Assembly: GCA_026982655.1 (NCBI GenBank)
Contig: JALSGO010000083.1
Coordinates: 30-64,029 of the forward strand
DNA length: 64,000 nucleotides
Source of the DNA: Candidatus Bipolaricaulota bacterium
GTDB lineage: Bacteria; Bipolaricaulota; Bipolaricaulia; RBG-16-55-9
Direction of reading: 5' to 3'
The notes under the pieces were generated by a model, which worked only from the letters and a program-made list of their open reading frames with translations, was not told where the DNA came from and ran no database searches. The first letter of the stretch is position 1, and the number at the start of each line of letters is the position of its first letter. Made by a program: the position numbers and the translations under genes. Below, piece after piece: positions 36,239 to 64,000 of this stretch.

Positions 36239-36245
36239 TTCCCCC

Positions 36246-38663: not shown

Positions 38664-38722
38664 GCGGCCTGCTCTGCCGGACGAAGCCATTCGGAAGCGA
38701 GAGGAAGGGAGGAAAGGAACTC

Positions 38723-39373: not shown

Positions 39374-39424
39374 CTCCCGTGGGCAGACCGAAGGCTACAC
39401 GACAATCGGGGAGGGAATGCCAAG

Positions 39425-40000: not shown

Positions 40001-40098
40001 CCGAAGCGCTCGGTTGGGGCCGGGCACGGGGGACGGCCCCCTAATCCCACCCCAGGAGGGAAGGGAAAGGGGAAGCTTCCTGAAGGAAGAAGAAGCCC

Positions 40099-42771: not shown

Positions 42772-43142
42772 TCGCGCAAATCGTGGTGAACGTCTTGGGG
42801 CTGCTCGCGATCGTCTGGATCGTCTGGTACTTCTGGATCTACGAGAAGAAGGGCGTCGTGGCCGCGGAGGCGGGCGGCGCTCAAGAAGTTCGCATTCGGG
42901 TCAAGGGGGGCTACGACCCCGACGTCATCGTCGTCCAGGCCGGAAAGCCCGTGAAACTCCACTTCTACCGCGAGGAGGAGGCGTCGTGCAGCGAGACGGT
43001 CGTCTTCCCGGACTTCGCCCAGTCGCTGAAGCTTCCGCCCTTTGAGACCGTCACCCTGGAGCTTCTGCCGGAGAAGCCGGGGGAGTACGAGTTCCACTGC
43101 CAGATGAACATGCTGCGGGGCAAGCTCATCGTGGAGGAGTGA
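42768..43142 (+). CDS. Cupredoxin-like domain small membrane protein fused downstream of copA ([10 protein letters not shown] motif)
   Basis: N-terminal TM helix, ~90 aa beta-sandwich region with Cys/His/Met cluster; paralog of 48785-49270; start overlaps copA stop (ATGA). Confidence 0.6.
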
Positions 43143-46495: not shown

Positions 46496-47077
46496 ATGCG
46501 ACCACAGAGCAGTTGGGTTCACGTCGGTTGGATCACAGCGTTGCTGACGGTGGCGGTGGGGATCGGGCTTGCGGTGGGGCTTCCGGGACGGGCCCACGAG
46601 GGCGCGGAGGTGAGCGCCTATCCTACCACCGTGGCCCCGGGGGAGACGCTCTTCGTGGAGGGCGCGGACATCAACCCTAACGGCCCGATCGCCCTCTTCT
46701 TGGAGGGCGTAAAGGGCAAGTTCCGCCTGGGTCAGGTCCGGGGGGACGAGGACGGCGGGTTCAAGACGAGCGTGGCCCTCCCGCCGGATCTCCCGCCGGG
46801 GACCTATTTGTTGGTGGCCGTCGGGGCCAACGGGGAGAAGGCCACCTTCTCGGTGACGGTGGCCGCCGCGGTAAGCTCCCTCACCCAAGAGCCCAGGGAG
46901 CCCACGGACGCGCTCATGGAGCTGGACCGGTCAAGGTCCTCCGAGGAGTGGGCGTTCCTCGCCGTCGTGATCGGGCTGAGCCTGCTCCTGGGGGCGTGGC
47001 TGGCCCGCCCGGAACGGATGGTTGCACCTGCCTCTCCTTCTGCCTCCGCCGCCGAGCCCGACGGGAGCGGGCCTTGA
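46496..47077 (+). CDS. Hypothetical periplasmic Ig-like protein with predicted mature N-terminal His and C-terminal TM anchor (possible CopC-like Cu-binding protein)
   Basis: Signal peptide ...GLPGRA|HEGAEV; beta-rich core; C-terminal helix WAFLAVVIGLSLLLGAWLA. Confidence 0.4.
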   Translation: MRPQSSWVHVGWITALLTVAVGIGLAVGLPGRAHEGAEVSAYPTTVAPGETLFVEGADINPNGPIALFLEGVKGKFRLGQVRGDEDGGFKTSVALPPDLPPGTYLLVAVGANGEKATFSVTVAAAVSSLTQEPREPTDALMELDRSRSSEEWAFLAVVIGLSLLLGAWLARPERMVAPASPSASAAEPDGSGP

Positions 47078-47103
47078 GCGCAAAGGGGGCCGAGAGGAAG
47101 GAG

Positions 47104-48309
47104 ATGAGCCGACGGGGGTACGAAGGAGTTTCGGTCGTGGGGGCCGGACCGGCGGGGCTTGTGGCGGCCCTCACGCTGGCCCGCGCAGGCGTCCCCGTCA
47201 CCGTCTACGAGAAGGGGCCGACGGTGGGCACCCGCTTCCACGGCGACTTTCAAGGCTTAGAGAACTGGTCCCGCGAGCTCGACGTCTTGGAGGATCTCCG
47301 GACGATGGGGCTTGCGATCAACTTCGCCGTGCAACCGCGCGACTCAGCGGACTTCTACGACGCCTGGGACCGGAAGTACGACATCAGGACCCGAGAGCCC
47401 CTCTTCTATCTGGTGCGCCGCGGGGGTGGGGAGGGGAGCCTCGACCGCGGGCTCTACGCCCAGGCCCGGGAGGCCGGGGTGCGGTTCCGTTTCCACACCA
47501 AGCTCGATCGGGTGGAGGGCCCGGCGATCGTGGCCACCGGCCCGCGCTACGCCGACGGCATCTGCGTGGGCTACCTCTTCGAGACGGACCTAGAAGACCT
47601 TACGGCCTGCATCCTCTCCCAGCGCCTGGCCCCCCGCGGCTACAGCTACCTCCTGGTGGCCGACGGTCGGGCGACGCTGGTGAGCTGCCACTTCGCCGAC
47701 CTCCCCCGCTGGCGGGATCATCTGGAGGCCACCGTCGAGGCCTTCCGAAAGCTTTACCGCTTTGAGATGCGGAACCCCCGCTTCTTCTCCGGCTACGGGA
47801 ACCTCTTCGCCCGGGGGCGCTTCCGCGACGGCCAAAAACTCTACGTGGGCGAGGCCGCCGGGCTCCAGGACGGCCTGTGGGGCTTCGGGATGCGCTTTGC
47901 CCTGCGCTCGGGATATCTGGCGGCCCAGAGCCTGCTCTCCGGCCAAGACTACGACGAGCTGGTCCGAAGGGAGCTTCTGCCGCACCACCGGGCGGGGCTG
48001 GTCAACCGCTTTTTCTGGAACCTCTTGAGCGATCGCATGTTGGCGTTCTTCCTGCGGCGGGCGGCGCGCTGGACCGACCTTCGGGGGCGGCTGCGCGAGC
48101 TCGCCGGGCCCCGTCCCTGGAAGGATCGGCTCTATCCCTTCATCCGGGGAGCCTGCGGCTGGCGGGCCCGCTACCGCGACGAGCGCTGCCTCCGGGAGGG
48201 GTGTCCCTGCATCGGGTGCGCGTGTCGGAGTCCTTCGCGTACGATCTCGAGCCCCTGCGTCTCTTGGGGAGCGGCTCGGTTCCGACTCGACATGACGCAA
48301 GTCATTTGA
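47104..48309 (+). CDS. FAD-dependent oxidoreductase (geranylgeranyl reductase-like) with Cys-rich C-terminal tail
   Basis: VSVVGAGPAGLVAALTLARAG dinucleotide-binding motif; tail ERCLREGCPCIGCACRS. Confidence 0.65.
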   Translation: MSRRGYEGVSVVGAGPAGLVAALTLARAGVPVTVYEKGPTVGTRFHGDFQGLENWSRELDVLEDLRTMGLAINFAVQPRDSADFYDAWDRKYDIRTREPLFYLVRRGGGEGSLDRGLYAQAREAGVRFRFHTKLDRVEGPAIVATGPRYADGICVGYLFETDLEDLTACILSQRLAPRGYSYLLVADGRATLVSCHFADLPRWRDHLEATVEAFRKLYRFEMRNPRFFSGYGNLFARGRFRDGQKLYVGEAAGLQDGLWGFGMRFALRSGYLAAQSLLSGQDYDELVRRELLPHHRAGLVNRFFWNLLSDRMLAFFLRRAARWTDLRGRLRELAGPRPWKDRLYPFIRGACGWRARYRDERCLREGCPCIGCACRSPSRTISSPCVSWGAARFRLDMTQVI

Positions 48310-48784: not shown

Positions 48785-49270
48785 GTGCCAATGCCTAAGA
48801 AGACGAACAAGGATCGGAAGGTCAAGCAGCAGCGTCTACTCCGGCAGGGGGCGGCCGGGGGCTGGCGGCCCTGGGCCTTTGGGGCCGTCACCCTCGGGGT
48901 GCTAACAGCCGCGTTTGGGCTGCTCTTGCCGAAGTTCTTCGCCGACGGTCCCGCAGCGGACGGGGAGGCCAACGTCATCCTGGTCGAAGCGGACATGGCC
49001 GGGCTCTATCCCAAGGAGATCCGGGTCAAGGCCGGGGAGCCCGTGACCATCCGCCTGCGCAGCTTGGACAACCGGTTCCACCTGGACGGGGGAGGCAAGC
49101 ACCAGTTCGCCATCGACGAGCTGGGGGTCAACATCATCGCTCCGCCGCTCGGCACGGCCGAGGCCACCTTCATCCCTACGGAACCGGGTGAATACGAGTT
49201 CTACTGCGACATCTGCTGCGGCGGGCGGGCCAACCCGACCATGGTAGGGAGGCTGATCGTCGAGCTATGA
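48785..49270 (+). CDS. Cupredoxin-like domain protein (EYEFYCDICCGG motif), membrane-anchored
   Basis: Paralog of 42768-43142 (shared PGEYEF-xC motif and beta-sandwich core); GGAGCAGGAGG RBS. Confidence 0.6.
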   Translation: MPMPKKTNKDRKVKQQRLLRQGAAGGWRPWAFGAVTLGVLTAAFGLLLPKFFADGPAADGEANVILVEADMAGLYPKEIRVKAGEPVTIRLRSLDNRFHLDGGGKHQFAIDELGVNIIAPPLGTAEATFIPTEPGEYEFYCDICCGGRANPTMVGRLIVEL

Positions 49271-50109
49271 GCGCTCTGACCCAGATCTCCGCGCGCAAGG
49301 TGGTGCTGGCCTCGGCGATCGCCCTGGGGGTGATCGCCGCCGCGGTCTTCTTGGGGCTGCGGCACCCCTCCGCCCAGGCCGTCCCGATGAGCCCGCTCCT
49401 CCCGGCGGTGACGCTGGGGACCATCGTGGTGGCCGGGATCGTCGACGGGATCAACCCCTGTGCCTTCACGGTGCTCCTACTGTTCGTTACTGCCCTGCTC
49501 GCGAGCCTGCAAACCCGCAGCGACGTCGGGATCGCCGAGAACGTGGGGGCCACGCGCGCCCGGATCGTGGGGCTCGGCTCCATCTACATCGCAGCCATCT
49601 TCCTCACCTACCTGGCGCTGGGGGCGGGGCTCTTGGTGACGGCAGATCTCTTCGTGCGGGAGCACCTGCCCGCCCGGATCGGGGCGCTGCTCGCCATCTT
49701 CCTCGGGCTGTGGATGCTCAAGGACTACTTCCTGCCCGGGTGGGGCTGGCGGCTGGGGGCCCCCAAGGTCGTGGGGGAGTGGGCCCGGCGCGCGGCCCGG
49801 AAGATGACCGTCCCGGCGCTGGCGCTCGGGGGCTTTCTCATCGGGCTCTGCACCGTGCCCTGCAGCGGGGCGGTCTACCTGGCGGTGCTGGCGCTCCTCT
49901 CGACCCAGCCGACCGCGACGGCCTTCGGGTACCTGGTGCTCTACAACCTGATGTTCATCCTCCCGTTGGTCGGGGTGCTGGCCGTGGCCGCGTCGCGCCC
50001 GGCGCTGAACCGCTTGGCCCGCTGGAACCTCCACCACCGGGAGGGGGTCCGGCTGGCCTTGGGGTCGGGTGTCGTGCTCATGGGGCTGTTCATCCTGTAC
50101 ACCGTCTAG
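49267..50109 (+). CDS. Cytochrome c biogenesis CcdA/DsbD-family thiol-disulfide transmembrane protein
   Basis: Two TM-embedded Cys (DGINPCAF; CTVPCSGAV) in 6-8 TM helices. Confidence 0.7.
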   Translation: MSALTQISARKVVLASAIALGVIAAAVFLGLRHPSAQAVPMSPLLPAVTLGTIVVAGIVDGINPCAFTVLLLFVTALLASLQTRSDVGIAENVGATRARIVGLGSIYIAAIFLTYLALGAGLLVTADLFVREHLPARIGALLAIFLGLWMLKDYFLPGWGWRLGAPKVVGEWARRAARKMTVPALALGGFLIGLCTVPCSGAVYLAVLALLSTQPTATAFGYLVLYNLMFILPLVGVLAVAASRPALNRLARWNLHHREGVRLALGSGVVLMGLFILYTV

Positions 50110-50159
50110 CTGGGAAACGGAGAACGGATCGAGAACCCAGGAGAAAGGAGGAAGCGGCG

Positions 50160-50480
50160 GTGAACAACCATCATGCGGGAGGCGGCAAGCCCTGCCACGT
50201 CGAGCGGCTGGAGAAAGAGGTGGACATGGAGGCGCTGCGCTCCACCCGGGTCAGCATCCTGGCGGTGACGGGGATGGGGTGTCCCAACTGTGCCCTGCGG
50301 GTGCACAACGCGCTCCTCGCCCTCCCCGGCGTCCATCGGGTGGACGTGGAGCTGGAGGCCGAGCGGGCGATCGTCTACTGGGACCCGACCGCCCTGCAGC
50401 CGGAGAGGCTGATCGAGGCGGTCTCCCAGGCTGCGGCGGGGACCCCTCACGACTACCGGGCGTACTTCGTGAAGCCGTAG
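50160..50480 (+). CDS. Heavy-metal-associated (HMA) domain protein, CopZ-like (GMGCPNC)
   Basis: MxCxxC motif in beta-alpha-beta-beta-alpha-beta context; AGGAGAAAGGAGG RBS before GTG 50160. Confidence 0.65.
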   Translation: MNNHHAGGGKPCHVERLEKEVDMEALRSTRVSILAVTGMGCPNCALRVHNALLALPGVHRVDVELEAERAIVYWDPTALQPERLIEAVSQAAAGTPHDYRAYFVKP

Positions 50481-50642
50481 CGGAGCCACAGACGCAGAGC
50501 GGGGCTGCCCGGGGCCCGAGTCACCGTCGTCGCATCGGCTTCCACCTCCGCCCCGGGCAGCTCCCCGCCCTGCCCGCCGACGGCAGGGAGCTCCCACACA
50601 CGGGGAGAGAAGGAGAAAGGGAAGACACAAGGAGGGATTTCC

Positions 50643-51173
50643 ATGGACCTTAGGCTCATCGCCGTTGCGATCGTCTCCTTGGCGCTGGGGTTCCTCTTGG
50701 CCTCCGGCCTGCGCCCGGAGGTCGGGGTGGGGCCTTCGGAGGCGGAGCGGATCTTGGAGCGGCTGCGGCGCGAGATCATCCCGGAGGAGGGCAGCCCCAC
50801 GGGCTACGGGATCGCCTTCAGCGAGGCGGGCTACCAGACCCTGGTGGCCAAGAACCGCACACTCAGCGTCCCGCCCGAGCGGGCGGACGACTTCGAGGGC
50901 CTGGACATGAGCCTGCCCTGCTGTCCCTTCCAGAGCCCGAGCGTCGACGAGGCGAAGAACTGCCCGTGCGAGCACCATCAGGCGCTCTACGGGCTGGCCA
51001 AGTGGCTCCTCCAAGAAGACTATCCCGCAGACCGGGTCCAGGAGGAGGTGGCGCGCTGGAGCCGCTACCTCTTCCCCAAGGAGGCGCTGCGGGCGGAGAT
51101 GGAGCGGCGGGCGAAGCTCGATCCCGCCGTCGAAGCCGCCCTGGAGGAGCTCAAGGCCAAGGGGAAGTGCTAG
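50643..51173 (+). CDS. Membrane-anchored Cys-rich hypothetical protein (LPCCPF...NCPCEHH motifs)
   Basis: N-terminal TM helix; two CC/CxC clusters plus HH; AAGGAGGGA RBS. Confidence 0.5.
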   Translation: MDLRLIAVAIVSLALGFLLASGLRPEVGVGPSEAERILERLRREIIPEEGSPTGYGIAFSEAGYQTLVAKNRTLSVPPERADDFEGLDMSLPCCPFQSPSVDEAKNCPCEHHQALYGLAKWLLQEDYPADRVQEEVARWSRYLFPKEALRAEMERRAKLDPAVEAALEELKAKGKC

Positions 51174-52618: not shown

Positions 52619-55573
52619 GTGAAGCGAATGGCCCGAGGGCCGGACTTCCTGATACGTTGGCGCGTGCCGCTGCTGGTCGCCGTCCTGGTGGCCACCGCGC
52701 TCTTGGGCGCGGCGGTCATGGGAGCCAAGCTCAACGCCGACTTCTCCACGTATCTTTCCCAAGACAGCCCGCTCGTCCGGGAGTTCAACCGCGTCGGCGA
52801 GGTCTTCAAGGCCAACTACGTCGGCATGGTCCTCGTCCGGACCGAGGATCTGTTCACCCCCGAGAACCTCAGGCTGCTGGATCGCCTGACCCGAGCGTAT
52901 AAGTCCATCGAGGGCGTCGACTCGGTGACCAGCCTCACCAACGCCGTCGACTTCCGGCGGGCCGACGGCGGCCTGGTTGTGGGAAAACTCCTCGAGGGCA
53001 AGCCCCTCCCGACGGCGCCCGAGGAGCTGGAGAGGTTCAAGCGCTACGTGCTCTCCAAGGAGATGTACGTCGGCGCGTTGGTCAACGCCAAGGGCACCAC
53101 CGCCGTGATCCTGGTGCGCCTGCTTCCCAAGGTGAATCACTTCAAGGTCGCCGGGCAGATCGACCAAGTCACCCAGGAGATCGCGCCCAATGCAGAAAAC
53201 ATCTACTACGGCGGGATGCCCTTCCTCATCTACTCCATGACCGGGCTCATCCTCGACAACCTCTTCTTCCTGGTGCCGCTGATCATCCTGTTGCTCGTGG
53301 GGGTGCTGGAGCTGGGTTTCCGCCGCCTGGGCGGGGTGCTCGCCCCCCTGACCGTGGTGCTGCTCGCCGTGGTCTGGACGATGGGGATCCTGGCGCTCCT
53401 GGGCCGCCCGATCGACCTTCTGACCGGGATCGTCCCCATCATCCTCATCGCGATGGGCTCGGCGGACGGGATCCACTTCATGCGGCGCTTCTACGAGGCG
53501 CGGGCCGCCGGAGCCGAGCGCCGCGAGGCCGTGAAAATCACAATGAGGGAGATGGGCACGCCGATCGTCTTTACGTCCATCACGACCATGATCGGGTTCG
53601 CCTCGCTGGCCATCTCGAACTTCGACATCATCCGGACGTTCGGCTGGGCCACCGCGCTGGGGATCTTCCTGGCGCTGGTCGTCACCCTGATCGTGCTCCC
53701 CGCCGGACTGTCCTTTGGCCGGGAGCGGGCCTCCGTGCCTGCCGAGACGGACAACAGCGGGAGGCCGCGCAGCGTCCGGGGAGGGAGCCGGGCGATGGCC
53801 GCCCTGGGCGGGGGGATCCACCGGCGTCCGGGCGCGATCGCGCTCCTGACGGTGGGGGTGATCGCGCTGGCCGCGGTGGGGATCCCCCGCATCGTGGTGA
53901 ACGTGGACTGGTCGCTCTGTCTGGCACGGGGCAGCAAGCCGTACTTGGCGGAGATGCTGCTGCGCCGGGAGTTCGGCGGCTCCCTGCCCCTGCTCGTGTC
54001 CGTGAAGGGCGACGTCAAGGACCCGGCGACGCTGGAGACGATGCGGGCCGTGGAGCGCCACCTCGACGCGCTGCCCGAGGTGAGCGAGGCCGAGTCGATA
54101 GCGTCGGTGCTGGCGGAGATGAACTGGACGCTCAACGGGCGCTTCGCCGTGCCCACCGAGCGGGCTCAAGTCAACAACTTGTGGTTCCTGCTCCAGGGAC
54201 AAGACGTGCTCGATCAGATGGTCCGCTCGGACAACCAAGAGGCGCTGGTGCAGGCGAAGGTGGCCTCGCTGGGCACGGCGGTGATCAGCCGGGTGGTCGA
54301 GGACGTGAACGCCTTCTTGAGCCGCCTGCCCCAGAAGTTGGTCGTCGTGGACGCCGCCCAAGCGCCCCCGGATGCTCAACAGGCGCTGAGGGAACTCCAA
54401 GCTCAGCAAGTGAAAGAGGCTCTGGCTCAAGACCTGCGGGCCAAAGGCCTTTCGGTTGAACCCGCGGCGCTCGAAGCTGTTGTTGAGGCAGCGCAGAGCT
54501 GGACCCCCGGCGAACCCGACTACGCGGCGCTCGGCGAAGCCATTGAGAAATATTTGCTGAGCCCCGAGTCCGAGGTGCCGTTCGACGACCCTGCACAGGC
54601 CGCGACGATAGCCGAGTCGATCACCACAGCGCTCAGCGAGCGAGGCGGACGGCCATTGAGTGTCTCTGAGTTAGAAGCGTTGCTGCGCCCCCAGGTCGAG
54701 ACGTCCTACCCCGAGGACGTGGCCTGGCTGGCAGAGGCGTTAGTTTATCGCGTCGATGAGTTTTTAGATGCCCGTCGCGTGGAGGCGGCTTACGCGCAGC
54801 TGGCCGCCCAGCTGCCCCCGGAGGCGCGCTCCAACACGGATCTTGCGAAGAAGCTGCGCGGCGACCTTTGGGGGCTGACGACTGCGACGCTGGCGCTCGG
54901 TCCCCAGCAGTACGAGTCCCTGCAGGCCCAATATGGTCTGGACCTCGCGCGGACGGTGACCCTGGCCGCCGAGCCCTCGGGCCTAGCCCCGGTGCTGGAT
55001 CAGATGGAGAAGGAGCTGCTCCCCACCCAGATCGAGAGCACGGCGCTGGCCTTGTTGGCCGTGACGCTCTTGCTGATTTTGGTGTTCCGCTCGCTGCGGG
55101 CGGGGCTTTTGGGGATCGTCCCCGTGGGCCTGACCATTCTGGTCAATTTCGCAGTGTTAGGCTACTTCGGCATCGGCCTGGACTCGTTCACCGCGATGAT
55201 CGCCAGCATCACCATCGGCCTGGGGATCGACTACGCGATCCACTTCACCCACCGCTTCCGGAAGGAGTTCGAGCGCTCCGGCGACGAGCGGACGGCCCTC
55301 ATCACCACGTTGCAGACGACGGGCGTGGCGATCCTCATCAATTCGTTTTCGGTGGGCGCGGGGTTCGCCGTGCTGCTCTTGGCCGGCGGCCAGCACATCC
55401 GGCTCTTGGGAGGCCTTACGGCAATAGCGCTCCTGGTGAGCGCGCTCTTCACCCTGGTCGTGCTCCCGGCGCTCACGCTCTTGTGGAAGCCGCGCTACTT
55501 TCAGACCCCCGTCGTCGTGGAGCCGAAGCTGCGCCCTGAGCCCGAAGCCGAGAGGGGAGTTCAAAGCGCGTGA
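52619..55573 (+). CDS. RND superfamily transporter, MMPL family (984 aa, large periplasmic domains)
   Basis: Duplicated 6-TM bundles, MMPL motifs (GSADGIHFMRRF; GLGIDYAIHFTHRF); real start may be ATG 52628 (leaderless). Confidence 0.8.
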   Translation: MKRMARGPDFLIRWRVPLLVAVLVATALLGAAVMGAKLNADFSTYLSQDSPLVREFNRVGEVFKANYVGMVLVRTEDLFTPENLRLLDRLTRAYKSIEGVDSVTSLTNAVDFRRADGGLVVGKLLEGKPLPTAPEELERFKRYVLSKEMYVGALVNAKGTTAVILVRLLPKVNHFKVAGQIDQVTQEIAPNAENIYYGGMPFLIYSMTGLILDNLFFLVPLIILLLVGVLELGFRRLGGVLAPLTVVLLAVVWTMGILALLGRPIDLLTGIVPIILIAMGSADGIHFMRRFYEARAAGAERREAVKITMREMGTPIVFTSITTMIGFASLAISNFDIIRTFGWATALGIFLALVVTLIVLPAGLSFGRERASVPAETDNSGRPRSVRGGSRAMAALGGGIHRRPGAIALLTVGVIALAAVGIPRIVVNVDWSLCLARGSKPYLAEMLLRREFGGSLPLLVSVKGDVKDPATLETMRAVERHLDALPEVSEAESIASVLAEMNWTLNGRFAVPTERAQVNNLWFLLQGQDVLDQMVRSDNQEALVQAKVASLGTAVISRVVEDVNAFLSRLPQKLVVVDAAQAPPDAQQALRELQAQQVKEALAQDLRAKGLSVEPAALEAVVEAAQSWTPGEPDYAALGEAIEKYLLSPESEVPFDDPAQAATIAESITTALSERGGRPLSVSELEALLRPQVETSYPEDVAWLAEALVYRVDEFLDARRVEAAYAQLAAQLPPEARSNTDLAKKLRGDLWGLTTATLALGPQQYESLQAQYGLDLARTVTLAAEPSGLAPVLDQMEKELLPTQIESTALALLAVTLLLILVFRSLRAGLLGIVPVGLTILVNFAVLGYFGIGLDSFTAMIASITIGLGIDYAIHFTHRFRKEFERSGDERTALITTLQTTGVAILINSFSVGAGFAVLLLAGGQHIRLLGGLTAIALLVSALFTLVVLPALTLLWKPRYFQTPVVVEPKLRPEPEAERGVQSA

Positions 55574-55624
55574 GGAATTTCGTCGGGGAGAGAATATCCC
55601 GTACAATAACAGGAGGTTGTTCCC

Positions 55625-56407
55625 ATGAAGCGTAGTGGAAGTAGAACGAGAACGGTGATCCTCGGACTGACGGTGACGTTGCTCCTGGCGGTCGGCGCTT
55701 GGGCGATCACGGGCGACGAGGTGCTGCAGAGGTCTCAAGAGGCGATGCGGCCCGGCCAGGACGCGACGATCACGGAACGGATGACGATCGCCAAGCCCGA
55801 CGGCCAGACGGACGTGCTGGAGCTCAAGATGTACATGAAGGGGGAGAAGACGCTGATCCGCGTCCTCGCCCCGGAGGACTTCGCGGGCATTGGGCTGTTG
55901 ATCCTGCCCCAGGAGGACGGCGGCGAGGAGATCTGGCTCTATCTTCCGGCCTTCCGGGACGTGAAGCAGATCGTGGCCGAATCCTTGAGCGAGGGCTTCG
56001 TCGGCTCGGACTTCGCCTACGAAGATCTCACGGTGCGCTACACCTCCAAGTGGGACGTGACCTCCATGAGCGAGGAGGAAGGGCAATACGTCCTGACGCT
56101 GGCTCCCAAGCCCGAGGCCCAGCTCAGTTACAGCGGGGCGCGCATGTGGGTGGACCAGGAGACGTTCCTGCCCACGCGGGCGGAGTTCGACCGGGAGGGA
56201 GAGCTGCTCAAGGTGCTGACCCTCTCGGAAGTGCAGGACTTCCCCAGCGTCGCGGACCCCGAGACGAGCTACCCCACCCCGACGCGGATCGAGATGGCCA
56301 ACGTGAAGACGGGGAGCCGGACCCTCATCGAGCTTTTGGAGGTCGAGTACGACACCGGGCTCTCGGACGACTTCTTCACCGTACGCAACCTCAAGCGGGG
56401 CGAATAA
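55625..56407 (+). CDS. LolA-like outer-membrane lipoprotein-sorting family protein (MMPL-associated)
   Basis: Signal peptide, LolA-like half-barrel signature (IWLYLPAFRDVKQI...GSDFAYEDL); paralog of 60626-61486. Confidence 0.65.
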   Translation: MKRSGSRTRTVILGLTVTLLLAVGAWAITGDEVLQRSQEAMRPGQDATITERMTIAKPDGQTDVLELKMYMKGEKTLIRVLAPEDFAGIGLLILPQEDGGEEIWLYLPAFRDVKQIVAESLSEGFVGSDFAYEDLTVRYTSKWDVTSMSEEEGQYVLTLAPKPEAQLSYSGARMWVDQETFLPTRAEFDREGELLKVLTLSEVQDFPSVADPETSYPTPTRIEMANVKTGSRTLIELLEVEYDTGLSDDFFTVRNLKRGE

Positions 56408-56460: not shown

Positions 56461-57798
56461 ATGGGAATGGCGCAAGCGACGGCGACGGCAGATCGCACGG
56501 AAGCCCAAGTGCGAGCGGTTTTAGACCGCCTGCTCGAGGCCATCCGCCCGAGGGAGTTCGCCGTGCGACTCTGGAACGGGGAGGTCATCGAGCCCGACCC
56601 CGGCCATCCGGCCCGCTTTACGCTCGTACTTAACCACCCGGGCGCGCTGGGGCGGATGCTCTGGCCGCCCTCGGACCTCACGATAGGAGAAGCCTACATC
56701 CGGGGGGACTTCGACGTCGAAGGAGATCTCATCGCCGCCTTCTCGCTGCGGGAGCACTTCACCCGCCCGCCGTTCCGCCTTACGGAGATGCTGCGCATGG
56801 TCCGCGTCCTGCGCCGAGCGGCCCGGACGGCCCCTCCCCTCCAGCCCGATCGAGGGCCCGCGCGCCTGCGCGGGGCGCGCCACTCCAAGGAGCGGGATCG
56901 GGCCGCCGTCCGCTACCACTACGACGTGGGCAACGACTTCTACGCCCTGTGGCTCGACCGCAACATGGTCTACTCCTGCGCGTATTTTGAGACGGGCACC
57001 GAAGATATTGACACAGCCCAGGAAGCCAAACTGGACTACATCTGCCGCAAGCTGCGCCTTCAGCCGGGAGAACGGCTGTTGGACATCGGCTGCGGCTGGG
57101 GCGGACTCCTGATGCACGCGGCCCAGCACTACGGCGTCGAGGCCGTCGGCATCACGCTAAGCCCCCCGCAAGCCGAATGGGCCCGGGAGCGCATCCGCGA
57201 GCGGGGGCTCGCCGACCGCTGCCGGGTGGAGGTCGCCGACTATCGCGACTTCGACGAGGGCCCCTTTGACAAGCTGGTGAGCGTCGGGATGTTCGAGCAC
57301 GTGGGCGCGAAGATGCTCCCCGTCTACTTCCAAAAGGCCTGGTCGCTGCTTAAGCCCGGCGGGGTTTTTCTCAATCATGGGATTACGCTGGGCCCGGGCC
57401 CGCGCGACGAGCCGAGCTGGTGGGGACGCACGCTCTTTAAGCAGGGGCTGTTCATCCAGCGATACGTCTTCCCCGACGGCGAGCTGGAGCCGATCCACGA
57501 GTCGCTCCAGGCCGCCGGTGAGGTGGGCTTTGAACTTAGGGATGTGGAGTCGCTGCGCGAGCACTACGCGCTCACCCTGCGCCGCTGGGTCCAGCGCCTG
57601 GAGGCCCGCCACGACGAGGCCGTCCGCGCCGCGGGCGAGGCCGTTTATCGCATCTGGCGACTGTTCATGGCCGGATCGGCGTATCACTTCGAGATCGGGA
57701 GGCTCAACGTCTACCAGGCGCTCTTCGTCAAGCCCGATCGCGGGCGGAGCGGTTTGCCTCTGACCCGAGCCGACTGGTATGCTCGCCCTAGTTCCTAG
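56461..57798 (+). CDS. cfa: Cyclopropane-fatty-acyl-phospholipid synthase family SAM-dependent methyltransferase
   Basis: YDVGNDFYALWLD, LLDIGCGWGGL, VSVGMFEHVG and the other CFA synthase motifs. Confidence 0.8.
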   Translation: MGMAQATATADRTEAQVRAVLDRLLEAIRPREFAVRLWNGEVIEPDPGHPARFTLVLNHPGALGRMLWPPSDLTIGEAYIRGDFDVEGDLIAAFSLREHFTRPPFRLTEMLRMVRVLRRAARTAPPLQPDRGPARLRGARHSKERDRAAVRYHYDVGNDFYALWLDRNMVYSCAYFETGTEDIDTAQEAKLDYICRKLRLQPGERLLDIGCGWGGLLMHAAQHYGVEAVGITLSPPQAEWARERIRERGLADRCRVEVADYRDFDEGPFDKLVSVGMFEHVGAKMLPVYFQKAWSLLKPGGVFLNHGITLGPGPRDEPSWWGRTLFKQGLFIQRYVFPDGELEPIHESLQAAGEVGFELRDVESLREHYALTLRRWVQRLEARHDEAVRAAGEAVYRIWRLFMAGSAYHFEIGRLNVYQALFVKPDRGRSGLPLTRADWYARPSS

Positions 57799-57815: not shown

Positions 57816-58022
57816 ATGAACGAGTCGTTCACCGATCCCGTCTGCGGGATGACGATCGATAAGAGCCAAGTCGCCGCGACCCTCGAGTACGGAGGGAAAA
57901 CGTACTACTTCTGCTCCCCCGGCTGCAAGGTCGCCTTCGAGCGCGAGCCCGAGAGGTATGCCGAGTCGGAGTCCAAGCCGGAGTCCTCGGAGGGGAGCGC
58001 TCCCGGGTCGTCCTCTCCTTGA
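57816..58022 (+). CDS. YHS/TRASH domain small protein
   Basis: DPVCGMTID...YYFCSPGCKVAF, same motif as the copA2 N-terminus. Confidence 0.7.
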   Translation: MNESFTDPVCGMTIDKSQVAATLEYGGKTYYFCSPGCKVAFEREPERYAESESKPESSEGSAPGSSSP

Positions 58023-58188: not shown

Positions 58189-60585
58189 ATGTCGACGCGA
58201 TCGCTCAAGGAGGAGAATCCCTCGATCATGTACAAGAAATACGTGGAATGGGTGCTGAACCGCCCCAAACTCGTGCTCGCGCTGATCGCGCTGGTGACCC
58301 TGGGGTTCGCCGCGGGGCTCCCGCGCATCCAGACGGACACCGACCCCGAGAACATGCTCCGTCCCGACGCCCCCATCCGCGTCTACAACGACCAGGTCAA
58401 AGCTTGGTTCGACCTCCAAGACGTGCTCGTCTTAGGGATCGTCAACGACCAAGACCCCAACGGGGTCTTGAACGCCCAAACGCTGGGGAAGATCTACCGC
58501 ATCACCCAAGAGATCCTCAAGATCGAGGGCGTCGTCCGCCGCAACGTCTGGAGTTTTCCGACGACCAACCACATCCGGGTGCGGGGAGGCACCCTCGTCC
58601 AAGAGCGTTTGCTCAAGACCGATCGGCCCACGGATGCCGACATCGCCGCGCTCGCCCAGGCCCTCGACGGAAACCCCCTCTTCGAGCGCATTCTCATCTC
58701 GGACGACCGCACGTTGGCCGCCCTCTACATCCCCGTGGAGGACGACGTGGACGCGAAACCCATCACGGATCGCATTCAGGAGATCGTCCAAGCCGAGGGC
58801 GGGCCGGAGGAGTATTACCTCGGCGGACAGCGCGTCGCCGAGGACGTCTTCGGGGTGCTGATGTTCCAACAGATGCTGCTGCTCTCGCCCTTGGTGGCCC
58901 TCGTCATCTGGGTGGGCTTGTGGCTCATGTTTCGAAGGCTGCGCTTTGCGTTTGTCTTCTCCCCCTTGTTGATCGCCTTGGTCTCGGTGATCTGGACGAT
59001 GGGGCTCATGATCTGGCTCGGGATCCCCGTCCACATCATGAGCTCCATGGCCCCCGTGTTTCTGATGAGCATCGGCGTGGTCGACGGGATCCACATCCTC
59101 AGTGAGTTCGTCGATCAGTACCCTAAGAGCCGCAACCGCCGCCGAGCGATCCTCGACACCCTGGTGGCCCTCAAGCGGCCCCTGCTCTACACCTCGCTGA
59201 CCACCGCCGTCGGCTTTGCGTCTTTGTACTTCACGGACATCCCGCCCGTTAGGGTCTTCGGGGTGTTCGTGGCCTTCGGGATCCTGGCCGCCTGGGTGCT
59301 TACGATCACCATGGTCCCGGCGATCGTGATGGTCCTGCGCGAGCAGGATGCCAAGGAGCTCGCTGCCAAGGAGAACCGCCTGGCCCGCGGGCTCCAAGCC
59401 CTGGGACGCTTCAGCATCCGGCGCCGCCGGGCCGTGCTCGTCGGGGGCCTCCTCGCTTTGGCCGTCGCGGGCTTCGGGCTGACTCAAATTCACATCGACG
59501 ACAGCCCCGTCTGGTGGTTCAAGAAGGGCCAGCCCATCCGCGAGGCCACCGCTTTATTGAACGAGAAGCTGGGAGGGACTTCGCTCCTGTATGTCGTGCT
59601 CGAGGGGGAGAAGGGCACGATGAAAGAACCCGAGGTGCTGCGGTACCTCGAGGAACTCCAGCGGTATCTGGAAGAATCCCCGTTGGTGGGCAAGACGACC
59701 TCGCTGGCCGACGTCGTCAAACGCATCAACGAGGCCTGGAACGACGACGATCCTCGGTATCGCGTGATCCCCGACTCCCGCAGGGCCGTAGCTCAGTTCC
59801 TGCTGCTGTACCTCTCCTCGGGGGACCCCAGCGATCTACAAGACTTCGTGACCCATGGCACGGGCTACGACAAGGCCAACGTCATCGTACAGGTGAAGAG
59901 CCCCGGTTCGGCGGCCATGGAGCGGGTCGTAGCACGGGCGCAAGCCTTCGTAGAGGGGAATCCGCCGCCCCGGGGGGTGCGGGTGAGCTTCGCCGGGCCG
60001 GGGTACTTCAATGCGAAGTGGAACGAGGAGATGTTCCGCGGGATGATGCGCGCCGTGGCCGGGGCCACCCTCGTCGTGTGGTTGCTGCTGTCGCTCAACT
60101 TCCGCTCGATGCGTTGGGGGATCGTGGGGCTGCTCCCCTTAGGGTTTACGATCGTGTTCACCTACGGGATGCTGGCTTTGCTGGGGGTGCCCTTCACCAT
60201 GCCCATCGAGGTGATCTCGGCCCTCTCGCTGGGGATGGCCGTGGACTTCGCCATCCACTTCGTCCAACGCTTCCGCGAGCGCTACGCCGAGACTCAAGAC
60301 GTAGAGGGCTCCTTGAGGTGGACCATGGGCGGGCCCGGCGTGGCCATTTTGCGCAACGCCGTCATCCTGTTTGTGGGCTTTACGGTGCTGATCTTCGCGC
60401 CGCTTACGCCGTATATCACCGTGGGGGTCTTTATCGCGATCATCATGGCCCTAAGCTCGCTGACCACGCTCTTCTTCTTGCCCGCGCTCATACGGCAGTT
60501 TGCCCCCTGGCTGGTGGACCGGCCCGCGCGGGCGGCCGTCCCCGCGGCCGCTGAAGTGGAAGCGGAAGTGGAACCGAAAGCCTAA
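58189..60585 (+). CDS. RND superfamily transporter, MMPL family (third copy)
   Basis: 798 aa; motifs GVVDGIHILSEF and GMAVDFAIHFVQRF; 12 TM helices. Confidence 0.8.
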   Translation: MSTRSLKEENPSIMYKKYVEWVLNRPKLVLALIALVTLGFAAGLPRIQTDTDPENMLRPDAPIRVYNDQVKAWFDLQDVLVLGIVNDQDPNGVLNAQTLGKIYRITQEILKIEGVVRRNVWSFPTTNHIRVRGGTLVQERLLKTDRPTDADIAALAQALDGNPLFERILISDDRTLAALYIPVEDDVDAKPITDRIQEIVQAEGGPEEYYLGGQRVAEDVFGVLMFQQMLLLSPLVALVIWVGLWLMFRRLRFAFVFSPLLIALVSVIWTMGLMIWLGIPVHIMSSMAPVFLMSIGVVDGIHILSEFVDQYPKSRNRRRAILDTLVALKRPLLYTSLTTAVGFASLYFTDIPPVRVFGVFVAFGILAAWVLTITMVPAIVMVLREQDAKELAAKENRLARGLQALGRFSIRRRRAVLVGGLLALAVAGFGLTQIHIDDSPVWWFKKGQPIREATALLNEKLGGTSLLYVVLEGEKGTMKEPEVLRYLEELQRYLEESPLVGKTTSLADVVKRINEAWNDDDPRYRVIPDSRRAVAQFLLLYLSSGDPSDLQDFVTHGTGYDKANVIVQVKSPGSAAMERVVARAQAFVEGNPPPRGVRVSFAGPGYFNAKWNEEMFRGMMRAVAGATLVVWLLLSLNFRSMRWGIVGLLPLGFTIVFTYGMLALLGVPFTMPIEVISALSLGMAVDFAIHFVQRFRERYAETQDVEGSLRWTMGGPGVAILRNAVILFVGFTVLIFAPLTPYITVGVFIAIIMALSSLTTLFFLPALIRQFAPWLVDRPARAAVPAAAEVEAEVEPKA

Positions 60586-60625
60586 TGGAGAGATTTTACA
60601 GAACCCCATAGGAGGTTGACCGACC

Positions 60626-61486
60626 ATGAGGCAGAGCACAAGCAACAGACTCCTCACGACCGGACGGACGTTGGGGCTCCTGGCCCTGGGGCTGCTCCTC
60701 ACGCTGGGGGCCTTCCCCGTGGTCCTCACGCAGGCCCAAGCGCAAGGTCCCTCGGCGGAGGAGATCATGCAACAGGCGAAGGACCGCTGGCAGGGCGAGG
60801 ATTTCACGTCGGCCGTGCGGCTTACGACCGCGGAGCCCGGCGGCGGGGAGACCGTCCTCGACGTCGACTTCAAGGCCAAGCTCATCGAGGAGAGCCGGGA
60901 CTCGGGTGCGTTCCGCTACAAGGTGTTGGCCCGCGTCACGGCCCCGGAGGACGTAGCGGGCTGGGCGGTCCTCATCTGGGAGCAGGAGTTCCCCACCCCG
61001 GACGACATCTGGCTCTACCTGCCGGCGCTCGAGTCCACGAAGAAGATCTCGCTGGAGAACTTCCGTAACCCGCTCTTTGGAAGCGAGTTCGTGTTCGAGG
61101 ACGTCATCGGGCGCGAGCCGGGGCTCGACACCCACGAACTCCTGCGGGAGGAGACCCTCAACGTCGGCGGCGAGGACCGCCCCGTCTGGGTGATTAAGAG
61201 CACGCCTCAGGACCCCGATCTGGCGGGCTTCGCCTACCGCATCACCTACGTGGACCGGGAGACGCTCTTGGAGCTCCGCATGGAGCTCTACAACGACACC
61301 GACGCGTTGATCAAGCTCTACCAAGCCGAGGAGGTGCGAGAGCTGCAGGGCATCCCCACGTGGGTTACGGCGACGGCGGAGAACCTCGAGACGGGTCGAG
61401 TCACCACCTTCGAGTTCCTCGAGCCGGTCTACAACACGGGCGTTCCGGACGAGATCTTCGACCCGGAGCGGTTGGGGCAGCCGTAA
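60626..61486 (+). CDS. LolA-like outer-membrane lipoprotein-sorting family protein (MMPL-associated)
   Basis: Signal peptide; IWLYLPALESTKKI...GSEFVFEDV, paralogous to 55625-56407. Confidence 0.65.
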   Translation: MRQSTSNRLLTTGRTLGLLALGLLLTLGAFPVVLTQAQAQGPSAEEIMQQAKDRWQGEDFTSAVRLTTAEPGGGETVLDVDFKAKLIEESRDSGAFRYKVLARVTAPEDVAGWAVLIWEQEFPTPDDIWLYLPALESTKKISLENFRNPLFGSEFVFEDVIGREPGLDTHELLREETLNVGGEDRPVWVIKSTPQDPDLAGFAYRITYVDRETLLELRMELYNDTDALIKLYQAEEVRELQGIPTWVTATAENLETGRVTTFEFLEPVYNTGVPDEIFDPERLGQP

Positions 61487-61502: not shown

Positions 61503-61543
<41 letters not shown>

Positions 61544-61681: not shown

Positions 61682-63124
61682 ATGAATGAGAAGACGTGGA
61701 TGATCGTGATGGTCGTGCTCGCGCTGGCCCTGGGACTGTGGTGGCTCTCCACACCGAAAGGCCCCCGGATGGAGATGGGGCAGAGAGCGGCCCCTGCGGC
61801 CGAGGAGGCCGTAGCCGGGGCTCAAGGGGGGCTGAACCGCCTGGCGTTCGTCGACCCGAGGACGGGCAGTCGGTTCACGGTCGAGGTCGGCCCGGCCACC
61901 CACGGCGTAGGCGTCCTGCCGGACGGCTCGAAGGCGTACGCCACCAGCTTCGGCGCCGACGAGATCTCCGTAGTCGATTTGGCCCAGAAGAAGACGGTCA
62001 AGACGATCTCCATCGGGGCCAAGTCCCACCATGTCGAGATCAGTCCCGACGGGCGTTGGGCCTACATCACCGCCGCGGACGACACCGTGGCCGTGATCGA
62101 CACCCGCACCGACACCCTGGCCGCGAAGATCGCCGTCCCGCCCGGCCCGATGTACGCCGTCTTCTCGCCCGACGGGCGCTTCGCGTACGTCACCAGCATG
62201 AAGGGCGGCGTGGTGAGCGTCCTCGACGTCGAAGCCCAGCAAGTCGTCCGGGAGATCCCCGTCGGGAAGGGGCCGGATCACGCGGCGCTCACCCCCGACG
62301 GGCGCTTCCTCTACGTCGCAAACCGCAACGACGGGACCGTGAGCGTCATTGACACCCAGCAGGGGAGCGTTATAGCGACGATCCCCGTGGGGAAGGGACC
62401 TCATGGGGTGGCCGTCGTCGAACGCGGTGGGAAACTGCTCGTCTTTGTGGGCAACCGCGGCGAGACGACGATCTCCATCATCGATCCCACGACGAACGCA
62501 GTCCTCGAGACGTTCGATCTGGGGGTAAGCCCCGAGCACCTCACGCCCTCCTTCGACCGCAAGACGCTCTACATCGGGAGCATCCCCGCGAAGCAGCTCT
62601 TCGTCTACGACGTCGAGCGCGGGGAGATCGTGCAGCGCTTCGACGTCGAAGGGGAGATCCACCAGATCGTCGTCGTGCCCCCACGCCAACAGGCCCGCAT
62701 GCCCATGCCGAGGATGCCCATGGAGCCTGAGCAAGAGAAGGGGAAAGAGATGGGCATGCCTATGGAAGTCGAGTACGAGCTCGTCGAGGTCGAGGGCGGC
62801 AGCTACCGAAATATCGACGCCCCCACCCTCTGGGCGATGCTCCAACAGAAGGACTTTCTGCTGATCAACGTCCACATCCCCTACGCGGGCGAGCTGCCCG
62901 AGACGGACTTGTTCATCCCCTTCAACGCCATTGAAGAAAACCTCGACAAGCTCCCGGAAGACAAGGACACGAAGATCGTGGTCTACTGCCGCAGCGGGCC
63001 GATGAGCGCGAAGGCCGCCGCGACGCTGGTGAAGCTGGGCTACACGAACGTCTGGAACTTAGAGCAGGGGATGCGCGAGTGGCAGGCGGCGGGGTTCCCA
63101 CTCTTGACGAACAAGGCGGAGTAG
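61682..63124 (+). CDS. Membrane-anchored YVTN-family beta-propeller protein with Met-rich linker and C-terminal rhodanese domain
   Basis: Repeated ...SPDGR.AYV...G.VSVID... blades; MPMPRMPME...MGMPME Met-rich segment; rhodanese active-site loop VVYCRSGPMS; GAGGAGGGGA RBS. Confidence 0.7.
   Translation: MNEKTWMIVMVVLALALGLWWLSTPKGPRMEMGQRAAPAAEEAVAGAQGGLNRLAFVDPRTGSRFTVEVGPATHGVGVLPDGSKAYATSFGADEISVVDLAQKKTVKTISIGAKSHHVEISPDGRWAYITAADDTVAVIDTRTDTLAAKIAVPPGPMYAVFSPDGRFAYVTSMKGGVVSVLDVEAQQVVREIPVGKGPDHAALTPDGRFLYVANRNDGTVSVIDTQQGSVIATIPVGKGPHGVAVVERGGKLLVFVGNRGETTISIIDPTTNAVLETFDLGVSPEHLTPSFDRKTLYIGSIPAKQLFVYDVERGEIVQRFDVEGEIHQIVVVPPRQQARMPMPRMPMEPEQEKGKEMGMPMEVEYELVEVEGGSYRNIDAPTLWAMLQQKDFLLINVHIPYAGELPETDLFIPFNAIEENLDKLPEDKDTKIVVYCRSGPMSAKAAATLVKLGYTNVWNLEQGMREWQAAGFPLLTNKAE

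Positions 63125-63890: not shown

Positions 63891-64000
<110 letters not shown>

Follow-up and report, generated by a model that had tools for sequence, protein, structure and literature searches.

Near the end of a 64,000-nt stretch of Candidatus Bipolaricaulota DNA (contig JALSGO010000083.1; hereafter the window, whose numbering is used for all coordinates), inside an island of copper genes, lies a gene for a 480-residue protein made of a membrane anchor, a YVTN beta-propeller, a methionine-rich linker, and a rhodanese domain. Known envelope copper defenses include efflux pumps, methionine-rich chaperones, cupredoxins such as CopI, and oxygen-dependent multicopper oxidases; to our knowledge, the extracytoplasmic neutralization of Cu(I) in strict anaerobes and uncultured phyla is poorly understood. 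A sequence-only reading of this stretch had proposed that the methionine-rich segment binds Cu(I) and that the fusion may link copper handling with sulfur-transfer or thiol chemistry. Here, we find that the protein is not a one-off fusion but one of a rare family that is scattered over several uncultured bacterial phyla and sits in their copper islands, and that, on the alignments reported below, the invariant core of this family is a seven-histidine propeller and not the methionine-rich linker. The features of the gene are given here, with counts out of 33 referring to the 33-sequence alignment of the family.

61682-63124, plus strand: whole gene, 480 residues, ATG start (transmembrane anchor, seven-bladed seven-histidine YVTN propeller, methionine-rich linker, rhodanese)
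61688-61750, plus strand: N-terminal hydrophobic helix, residues 3 to 23, a signal anchor (AlphaFold2 model and relatives)
61808-62677, plus strand: seven-bladed YVTN beta-propeller, residues 43 to 332, 28 strands (NCBIfam and Pfam matches, AlphaFold2 model)
61901-61903, plus strand: H74, hub histidine of blade 1 (ATHGVGV), invariant in 33/33
62027-62032, plus strand: H116-H117, histidine pair of blade 2 (KSHHVEI), invariant in 33/33
62153-62155, plus strand: Y158, hub position of blade 3, the sole blade without a histidine; Tyr or Phe in the family, Tyr, Phe, Met, or Ser in distant relatives from metagenome-assembled genomes (MAGs)
62276-62281, plus strand: D199-H200, blade 4 (GPDHAAL); Asp in 32/33, His in 33/33
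62402-62404, plus strand: H241, blade 5 (GPHGVAV), in local alignment with the histidine of NosZ SPHGIN
62534-62539, plus strand: E285-H286, blade 6 (SPEHLT); Glu in 28/33, His in 33/33, with H286 in local alignment with the histidine of NosZ GPLHTA
62660-62665, plus strand: H327-Q328, blade 7 (EIHQIVV), both in 33/33
62693-62779, plus strand: Met-, Pro-, and Glu-rich disordered linker, residues 338 to 366, seven Met; present only in orthologs at least 70% identical
62777-63109, plus strand: rhodanese module, residues 366 to 476, with the N-terminal hairpin VEVEGGSYRNI and the motif NVHIPYAGELPETD (H398); same subtype as free-standing transmembrane-anchored rhodaneses
62987-63007, plus strand: active-site loop C436-R-S-G-P-M441-S442, six-residue, sulfurtransferase type; C436 is the only cysteine

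The open reading frame lies exactly where it had been placed, and both the membrane-anchored multiblade propeller and the terminal rhodanese of the sequence-only reading hold. The TIGR02276 YVTN repeat model matches five stretches at 140.5 bits (NCBIfam cutoff, 27.85), and the Pfam models Lactonase, Cytochrom_D1, and YNCE span approximately residues 68 to 335. An AlphaFold2 model built from 42 homologs (mean pLDDT, 89.5) contains a helix at residues 3 to 23, 28 strands arranged as seven four-stranded blades at residues 43 to 332, and a rhodanese fold at residues 366 to 470; residues 337 to 360 are disordered (pLDDT, <50). With a repeat score over the curated cutoff and seven four-stranded blades, the propeller is of the YVTN/lactonase type. 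PF00581 matches residues 398 to 470 at 50.6 bits (gathering cutoff, 22.2), and the string YCRSGPMS, in which a catalytic cysteine had been seen, stands at residues 435 to 442. The domain combination is indeed uncommon: a search of 5.8 billion protein sequences yielded 14 clusters of the target family and nine of a second family. Because relatives carry a lipobox (LFAGC in P0068) or signal peptides (L024 and L027), the bulk of the protein probably lies outside the cytoplasm, which is also the usual location of YVTN proteins and would fit the fusion of a DsbG-like module in some relatives.

The sequence-only reading passed over a conserved candidate metal site in the propeller. The seven repeats stand in register, in blades 1 to 4 as VGPAT-H-GVGVLPDG, IGAKSH-H-VEISPDG, VPPGPM-Y-AVFSPDG, and VGKGPD-H-AALTPDG and in blades 5 to 7 as VGKGP-H-GVAV, LGVSPE-H-LTPSFD, and VEGEI-H-QIVV, with the hub residue opening the final strand of every repeat, before the PDG turn and the YVTN strand. 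We take this final strand to be the innermost one, as in the structure 1L0Q; the hub residues should therefore ring one mouth of the central tunnel, with D199, E285, Y158, and Q328 occupying adjacent hub positions. When all 120 matches retrieved from the 5.8 billion sequences were mapped, the pattern H-HH-[Y/F]-H-H-H-H marked a subfamily of 33 clusters, and other YVTN proteins had unrelated residues at these positions. H74, H116, H117, H200, H241, H286, and H327 are invariant in all 14 full-length ortholog clusters, and all seven are among the 21 invariant columns of the 33-sequence alignment. They are also kept in MAG relatives at 32 to 38% identity, in which only the blade 3 position varies (Y/F/M/S). 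The whole protein contains eight histidines, the seven of the hub plus H398 in the NVH motif of the rhodanese, all of them invariant.

One could read these histidines as structural, in the manner of the WD40 GH tetrad, or as binding a ligand other than copper, with the protein a scaffold that merely travels with metal islands. WD40 propellers do have a conserved histidine per blade without binding metal, and nonmetal propellers dominate fold searches; yet these hub histidines are not needed in generic YVTN propellers, among them 1l0q, the nearest relative of solved structure (28% identity). The HH doublet, the flanking D199, E285, and Q328, and the absence of unconserved histidines point to a ligand site, and the copper neighborhood recurs in at least six phyla with differing C-terminal modules. 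We consider a purely structural or noncopper role improbable.

Family members were traced in the protein clusters and in a scan of 185,579 species genomes; the loci cited in this text carry the labels L001 to L027 and L047. The 14 full-length ortholog clusters share the target's architecture at 49 to 100% identity, and a profile search recovered the same 33 clusters and none new. A search of 1.84 billion representatives was dominated by giant multipropeller YVTN proteins, and the family size obtained from it is rough only. The hub pattern was found in 14 complete and two partial open reading frames among L011 to L027. The genomic carriers are MAGs of Bipolaricaulota, Fraserbacteria, Binatia, Tectomicrobia, Nitrospinota, Thermodesulfobacteriota, and Syntrophobacterales, plus one Gammaproteobacteria MAG; the nearest genomic relatives (78% and 69% identity) are Bipolaricaulota. 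All 14 ortholog clusters are unannotated or carry only the name that annotation pipelines give this family, “YVTN family beta-propeller protein,” and nosZ surveys based on hidden Markov models that take weak lactonase-type matches could miscount it. No curated model covers the seven-histidine family, and our literature searches turned up no paper on a copper-linked YVTN propeller. We propose it as a new family, the seven-histidine YVTN propeller of copper islands, recognized by the hub HHH-x-HHHH, an N-terminal anchor or signal, and cop neighbors, all of which the target has.

What follows the propeller is exchangeable. Members end after it (approximately 325 residues in total) or continue into a rhodanese, a DsbG-like thioredoxin-fold module (CIWC; 36.5 bits to DsbG, below cutoff), a domain of approximately 130 residues (LDTH...SxHHR), or the latter together with a Cys-rich one (LPCC...C.CEHH...RWHHYLYP); the approximately 130-residue and Cys-rich modules have no Pfam or NCBIfam match. 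The window itself encodes a free-standing, transmembrane-anchored Cys-rich protein at 50643-51173 (LPCCPF...NCPCEHHQ...KAKGKC), which belongs to no Pfam or NCBIfam family and is 60% identical to the C-terminal domain of P0025 (L004). Its gene follows a cupredoxin and SfLAP-like pair, and the same pair precedes the fused propeller in L004.

The methionine-rich segment is real and well above chance. The string MPMPRMPMEPEQEKGKEMGMPMEVEYE occupies residues 340 to 366, and 7 of 30 residues in this stretch are Met, compared with 2.2% elsewhere in the protein (binomial test on 30-residue windows, P = 3.5e-6; approximately 0.0016 after correction for all windows); no other 30-residue stretch across the six frames of the 64-kb window is richer in Met. 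Among the six closest orthologs, the linker has 7, 6, 5, 3, 4, and 5 Met, its length and sequence varying and its M/P/E composition retained. In the other 8 of the 14 rhodanese-bearing orthologs, it is cut to 8 to 14 residues with 0 or 1 Met, and none of the remaining 19 clusters of the family, in which the copper context is retained, has it. Residues 338 to 366 have no Pfam or NCBIfam match and no CusF, PcoC, or CopB domain homology. The segment as the sequence-only reading described it is thus present, but it is confined to the six closest orthologs, is predicted to be disordered, and lacks the homology that a Cu(I) protein of those types would bring. At the DNA level (62696-62759), GCATGCCCAT (62696-62705) is the reverse complement of ATGGGCATGC (62750-62759), and two copies of ATGCCCATG are present; slippage or hairpin-mediated duplication may account for the spread of the M-P-M and M-G-M codons.

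It might still be that this linker is the Cu(I)-binding element, the rhodanese an ordinary sulfurtransferase, and the propeller a mere scaffold. The Met content and its retention in six orthologs speak for this, as do the invariant Cys and six-residue loop of the rhodanese and a His-rich tether, GHEQHH, found at the equivalent place in some free-standing rhodaneses. Against it stand the deletion of the linker in 8 of 14 rhodanese-bearing orthologs and its absence from 19 clusters with the same copper context, the disorder of the segment and its want of Met-motif domain homology, and the seven-histidine hub, the strongest conservation signal, which would be left unexplained. We hold this explanation to be quite improbable. 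The GHEQHH tethers suggest that linkers able to catch metal may recur among these proteins.

The rhodanese itself belongs to a distinct subtype. C436 sits between strand 432 to 435 and helix 440 to 451 in the AlphaFold2 model and is invariant in 14/14 orthologs and in 9/9 members of the second fusion family; the motifs C436-R-S-G-x-M441-S and NVHxPYxGELPxTD are invariant across the 14 ortholog clusters. With a score above cutoff and a Cys that starts a six-residue loop, the domain has the makings of a catalytically competent rhodanese. The common loop is CRSGxRS, with Arg where this subtype has Met, and NVH replaces the usual DVR; sulfurtransferase activity should not be assumed, since the last loop position is Met and not Arg or Thr. 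A search with the rhodanese alone gave 806 matches, of which the best 120 are nearly all free-standing proteins of 118 to 204 residues (mostly approximately 145 to 160) at 58 to 73% identity; CRSGxMS-type loops were found by regular expression in 90 of these 120, and 3 of them are fused to DUF1573. The free-standing rhodaneses examined have an N-terminal transmembrane helix. We found no paper on this subtype or on rhodanese in cop operons in our literature searches.

Free-standing members of the subtype also lie among copper genes. L008, whose contig also carries the P0025 propeller, and L009 share the order CopA, cupredoxin, PEMT-type methyltransferase, FAD oxidoreductase, rhodanese, and UbiE-type methyltransferase, and L010 has DUF302 and a P-type ATPase near its rhodanese. 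The adjacency of rhodanese and UbiE-like methyltransferase recurs in the window, L001, L011, L012, L008, and L009. The FAD/NAD(P)-binding oxidoreductase directly 5' of the free-standing rhodanese (L008, 8811-10004; L009, 6826-8004) is 62 to 75% identical between loci, and the same oxidoreductase occurs in the window at 46948-48309, apart from the fused rhodanese. The second YVTN family (hub pattern.THDGHQY; 385 to 653 residues; nine clusters) is unrelated to the first and carries the same rhodanese subtype; in L047 (9001-14295), the gene for one fusion, P0029 (565 residues), lies directly upstream of two tandem multicopper oxidases, with CsoR-CopA-cupredoxin-rhodanese on its other side. This second family beside copper genes indicates that the pairing of propeller and rhodanese with copper arose more than once.

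This context raises the thought that the rhodanese could itself be a Cu(I) site, formed by the Cys436 thiolate, the Met441 thioether, and perhaps His398, so that the protein would have two copper sites, an arrangement compatible with a copper-binding hub. Met is invariant in place of Arg in nearly all loops found (CRSGxMS), NVH stands for DVR, and, in the loci examined, the subtype hardly ever occurs away from CopA and cupredoxin genes. But the loop length and the CRSG start are typical of persulfide-forming rhodaneses, and periplasmic rhodaneses with sulfur roles exist, with PspE and Sud among the Protein Data Bank (PDB) matches. A copper site in the rhodanese seems to us very improbable.

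The surrounding copper island spans from approximately 32.5 kb to the window end, and its main genes are as follows.

32531-43142, plus strand: core copper genes (Rieske, CopA-1, CsoR, MMPL, DUF1573, CopA-2, cupredoxin)
32531-33181, plus strand: Rieske protein
33191-35848, plus strand: CopA-1
35924-36238, plus strand: CsoR
36246-38663, plus strand: MMPL, followed by DUF1573 proteins
40099-42771, plus strand: CopA-2 with YHS and two HMA domains
42768-43142, plus strand: cupredoxin with FHCQMNM
48785-51173, plus strand: linked module of CuA-like cupredoxin (48785-49270), SfLAP-like membrane protein (49267-50109), and Cys-rich protein (50643-51173)
57816-58022, plus strand: small YHS-domain protein; YHS is the commonest close neighbor of the propeller in related loci
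58189-61486, plus strand: MMPL-type resistance-nodulation-division (RND) transporter (58189-60585) and LolA-like/TP_0789-like protein (60626-61486), directly upstream of the target; same order in L001, L021, and L012
63132-63890, plus strand: UbiE/PmtA-like class I S-adenosylmethionine methyltransferase, starting 8 nt past the target stop

The two CopA proteins are P1B-1 Cu(I) ATPases with CPC, YN, and MxxSS motifs, and the YHS domain of CopA-2 is N-terminal. The regulator carries the copper C...HxxxC fingerprint of CsoR, for which reason CstR, a persulfide sensor, was set aside. A small transmembrane-anchored cupredoxin with C-terminal F[QHT]CQM[GN]M stands directly 3' of CopA both in the window (42768-43142) and in seven of the examined loci (L002, L003, L005, L008, L009, L024, and L047), which makes it a conserved partner of CopA. 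Three MMPL-type RND transporters are encoded in all (36246-39373, where DUF1573 genes follow the transporter; 52619-56407 and 58189-61486, where a LolA-like/TP_0789-like gene follows each), and a cyclopropane-fatty-acid synthase at 56461-57798; together, they may reflect a theme of envelope-lipid remodeling or export inside the metal island. An open reading frame from GTG 63887 overlaps the methyltransferase stop by 4 nt and, after approximately 17 residues, is pure (Glu-His)n to the window end at 64000; it may encode the His-rich metal-binding N terminus of a transporter or chaperone. The sequence-only reading had placed the target at the edge of the island and next to this (Glu-His)n protein. 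The island is real, but the methyltransferase separates the two genes, and the window ends too soon for an edge to be judged.

Immediately upstream of the target, a 196-nt gap holds a 39-nt poly-G run (61504-61542) that leads into a hairpin (to 61570) with arms GGGGAGATCCCC and GGGGAGATCCC. The locus at 78% identity, L001, has a 69-residue YgaP-like transmembrane gene where the window has this run, which may be a sequencing or assembly artifact that hides or replaces a small gene; since synteny continues across the run, the join looks sound. A scan around the target gene found no promoter-like site and terminators at chance level only.

Copper genes accompany the family well beyond the window. 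Orthologs and paralogs at 33 to 82% identity stand beside CopA, CopZ, CsoR or MerR, YHS, and cupredoxin genes. Their hosts are Bipolaricaulota, Fraserbacteria, Binatia, Tectomicrobia, Thermodesulfobacteriota, and one MAG of the Gammaproteobacteria, and representative loci are as follows.

L001, P0005, 78% identity: Trx, DUF411, MMPL, LolA-like, YgaP-like transmembrane protein, target, UbiE methyltransferase, then P-ATPase, ArsR, DsbA
L002, P0013, 51% identity: CopZ, YHS, Rieske, CsoR, beta-CASP, HAD, CopA, cupredoxin, CHRD, 218-residue hypothetical, target, 229-residue hypothetical, DsbD_TM ... MMPL, LolA-like
L005, P0019, no C-terminal domain: as L002, minus beta-CASP and HAD, plus a Cu-oxidase_2 gene
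L004, P0025: CopA, YHS, cupredoxin, SfLAP-like, target, Ccm genes, second CopA
L006, P0016: MerR, CopA, DUF302, CopZ, target
L012, ortholog, 57% identity: MMPL, LolA-like, CsoR, YHS, target, methyltransferase
L024, distant member, 35% identity: cytochrome c, CopA, cupredoxin, YHS fusion, target

A tblastn search with a panel of neighbor genes, covering 8 to 10 kb around the propeller in 27 loci, found CopA, YHS, cupredoxin, CsoR, or MMPL in the majority. Loci without such a match are short contigs or belong to a subset from Nitrospinota or Tectomicrobia, in which the propeller adjoins Rieske and cytochrome b genes instead. Rieske and/or cytochrome b genes recur more widely (L002, L005, L008, L022, L025 to L027, L047, and the window), and thiol-redox genes, namely DsbD_TM, DsbA, thioredoxin, CcdA, and Ccm genes, are found across loci. 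In L027 (7333-8870; Nitrospinota MAG), the gene for a Rieske protein with a Tat-like signal runs into the start of the propeller gene, with a histidine kinase and a sigma-54-type response regulator upstream, which suggests an electron-transfer pair outside the cop context. The proposed link of copper with sulfur or thiol chemistry finds support in the cop neighbors of relatives at 33 to 82% identity, the swappable thiol modules, and the Dsb and thioredoxin neighbors, but not in the Met-rich linker as a conserved element.

These neighborhoods also bear on whether the protein could be a noncatalytic periplasmic metallochaperone or buffer, whose hub would bind Cu (or Zn), a single ion or a few, for delivery to the MMPL/LolA-like system or CopA, as AztD does for zinc. 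Both in the window and in the closest relatives, the gene comes after the MMPL and LolA-like pair; weak AztD matches were obtained (30 bits; PDB 6cmk, E = 9e-4), and another YVTN propeller, PedA2, is encoded in a lanthanide-uptake ATP-binding cassette (ABC) operon (PMC6839425). However, seven His plus Asp and Glu exceed the needs of a transfer site, the MMPL adjacency is confined to close relatives, the AztD cutoff of 400 bits is far from reached, and such a role leaves the Rieske, cytochrome b, and cupredoxin neighbors and the swappable redox-thiol modules unexplained. We give this role a small chance.

The hub can be set beside that of NosZ. In Sinorhizobium meliloti NosZ, which was located on pSymA via its CuA motif, the His motifs are DLHHPH, TVHGL, SPHGIN, GPLHTA, QPGHNH, and AEPHDA, spaced in a way that fits the published CuZ ligands His129/130/178/326/382/433/494 (Pseudomonas stutzeri numbering); the histidines of SPHGIN and GPLHTA we take to be among these ligands. 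A local profile alignment of the family against NosZ puts H241 on the SPHGIN histidine and H286 on the GPLHTA histidine (hhalign probability, only approximately 3%), so the in-blade position appears to be the one NosZ uses for CuZ ligands. The global hhalign alignment of the family with NosZ was meaningless, and only the in-blade motif equivalence from local mode was retained. By analogy, the seven-histidine hub is probably a multi-copper site, with the hub histidines predicted to face the tunnel and bind copper.

Our best explanation, offered tentatively and rated somewhat short of an even chance, is that the protein is an envelope copper-stress protein in which a multi-copper hub like those of NosZ and thiocyanate dehydrogenase (TcDH) is served by a tethered thiol or persulfide carrier. 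The tunnel would hold a multinuclear copper centre of three or four ions built like CuZ or the tri-copper site of TcDH, as seven His plus Asp and Glu would suit. Three or four ions per 50-kDa protein make a poor store, which favors a redox-active centre over a passive sink. Such a centre would oxidize or otherwise neutralize Cu(I), Cu-thiol, or Cu-sulfur species in the cell envelope, with electron exchange between it and the products of the nearby Rieske, cytochrome b, and cupredoxin genes, a role analogous to that of the oxygen-dependent multicopper oxidases of cop and cue regulons. The rhodanese, on its flexible linker of approximately 30 residues, would be one of several interchangeable thiol modules, with Cys436 bringing a thiol or persulfide to the hub, or taking it away, for sulfur supply or removal or for the handling of copper-thiol adducts. 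In the Bipolaricaulota-like clade, the linker has turned Met-rich and may also catch Cu(I). What we infer, in moving from the observed architecture, conservation pattern, module swapping, and copper-gene neighborhood to this mechanism, is the metal's identity, the nuclearity of the site, its redox activity, and the transfer of sulfur.

Several points weigh against this explanation. The tunnel-facing orientation comes from strand register and not from distances in the model, and copper is assigned from gene neighborhood alone; L020, L023, and L025 to L027 lack CopA within 8 kb. The family-NosZ profile alignment is not significant at the hhalign probability given above, and blade-by-blade equivalence is not established: around the ring, the target has H, HH, -, H, H, H, H, against HH, H, -, H, H, H, H in NosZ. 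Fold searches return all kinds of seven-bladed propeller at similar scores, and the WD40 GH tetrad shows that a conserved histidine in each blade can be purely structural. No nosDFYL-type assembly genes or nosR were found in the window, only a weak NosD-domain match 50 kb away. Applied to the anchor of the target itself, the positive-inside rule gives no clear topology, and every carrier is an uncultured MAG. The weak NosD match (35.9 bits) is a 528-residue right-handed beta-helix protein encoded at 10533-12116 on the minus strand, in housekeeping surroundings and with no NosF, NosY, or NosL gene beside it.

A bolder version has, in our estimate, a minor but real chance of being right: the hub would hold a CuZ-/TcDH-like copper or copper-sulfide cluster, and the protein would be an unrecognized envelope copper enzyme of uncultured, largely anaerobic lineages. 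It could possibly act as an oxygen-independent cuprous or copper-thiolate oxidoreductase, or as a “split” relative of N2O reductase or TcDH, wired to the CuA-like cupredoxin, Rieske, and cytochrome b proteins; the rhodanese, DsbG-like, or Cys-rich module could then possibly deliver or remove the cluster's sulfur atom or reducing equivalents. The cupredoxin in question, 12 kb upstream of the target (48785-49270), is transmembrane anchored, and its best curated matches are weak ones to CuA of NosZ clades I to III and CoxB (E = 3e-7 to 4e-4). In its loop, YCDICCGGRANPTM against YYCTWFCHAMHMEM, the first His and both CuA Cys are kept, a third Cys is added, and the second His is missing. A split NosZ-like enzyme is therefore only speculative, as the CuA-like cupredoxin lacks that His and its type occurs in just two loci, the window and L004.

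Were the favored explanation true, a His-lined multi-copper propeller with exchangeable thiol or persulfide modules in cop operons would be a new type of player in copper defense. NosZ and TcDH being the two kinds of copper-hub propeller known so far, it would make a third, and experiments could then address how the CuZ-type site evolved and where its sulfur comes from.

Comparison with the following curated families places the target outside them. Its score against TIGR04246 (NosZ) is 19.5 bits, against a cutoff of 625, and its C-terminal domain is a rhodanese and not a CuA cupredoxin with the motif H...C-x3-C-x3-H-x2-M. The clade III model L-NosZ (NF052460; cutoff, 700) gives the target 103.7 bits, 10 other YVTN matches (including cupredoxin- and rhodanese-bearing ones) 72 to 136, and distant seven-histidine members 82 to 124. 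L-NosZ is reported to lack canonical nos accessory genes and to have cytochrome and transporter neighbors (PMC13477213). It shares some phyla, Nitrospinota and Desulfobacterota, with the target family; the target has no C-terminal cupredoxin. Zinc metallochaperone AztD (NF038015; 30 bits versus a cutoff of 400) and YncE (curated cutoff missed) were likewise rejected, as was the pyrroloquinoline quinone (PQQ) propeller TIGR03866 (137 bits versus 287.3). The CXXCW protein TIGR03865 scores 27.4 bits versus 128, and the target has a single Cys and no CXXCW motif. TIGR03866 (PedA2) and TIGR03865 are a YVTN propeller and a rhodanese-like protein of one PQQ system, presumably encoded by neighboring genes, but they are separate proteins, and the hub residues differ from those of the target.

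For the linker and the rhodanese, the nearest known systems differ from the target as well. The Met segments of CueO, PcoA, CusF, PcoC, and CopB are M-x-M-rich Pro/Glu low-complexity sequence like that of the target, in which the segment is a disordered and unconserved interdomain tether; membership among Met-motif Cu(I) proteins (CusF, PcoC, or CopB type) was rejected on the lack of a domain match and of conservation. PspE, Sud, and YgaP are, like the target module, single-domain extracytoplasmic rhodaneses with one Cys in a six-residue loop (PDB matches 6mxv, 1qxn [Sud], 2jtq [PspE], and YgaP). The target subtype differs from them in its CRSGxMS loop, its NVHIPYxGE[LI] motif, and its GGSYRNI hairpin and lies among copper genes and not psp or polysulfide-reductase genes; PspE/GlpE membership was rejected at 28.2 and 23.3 bits against an equivalog cutoff of 102.

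For the propeller, the likeness to NosZ would consist in seven histidines, including an HH pair, at the hub of a seven-bladed propeller, with the hub position in the target being predicted from register only; NosZ has a fused CuA cupredoxin and serves denitrification, whereas the target has a rhodanese at its C terminus and a copper-resistance context. TcDH of Thioalkalivibrio (PDB 5f75/6uwe) likewise has a copper hub in a seven-bladed propeller, its similarity to the target being remote and local; it is a soluble, Tat-exported dimer without rhodanese, encoded in thiocyanate-oxidation operons with cytochrome c552, whereas the target lies in cop islands. On this computational evidence, the target would be a variant of two known kinds, the hub-metal propeller and the envelope rhodanese. 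It belongs to the YVTN propeller and rhodanese superfamilies and, as far as analogy of the hub can tell, most resembles NosZ and TcDH in function.

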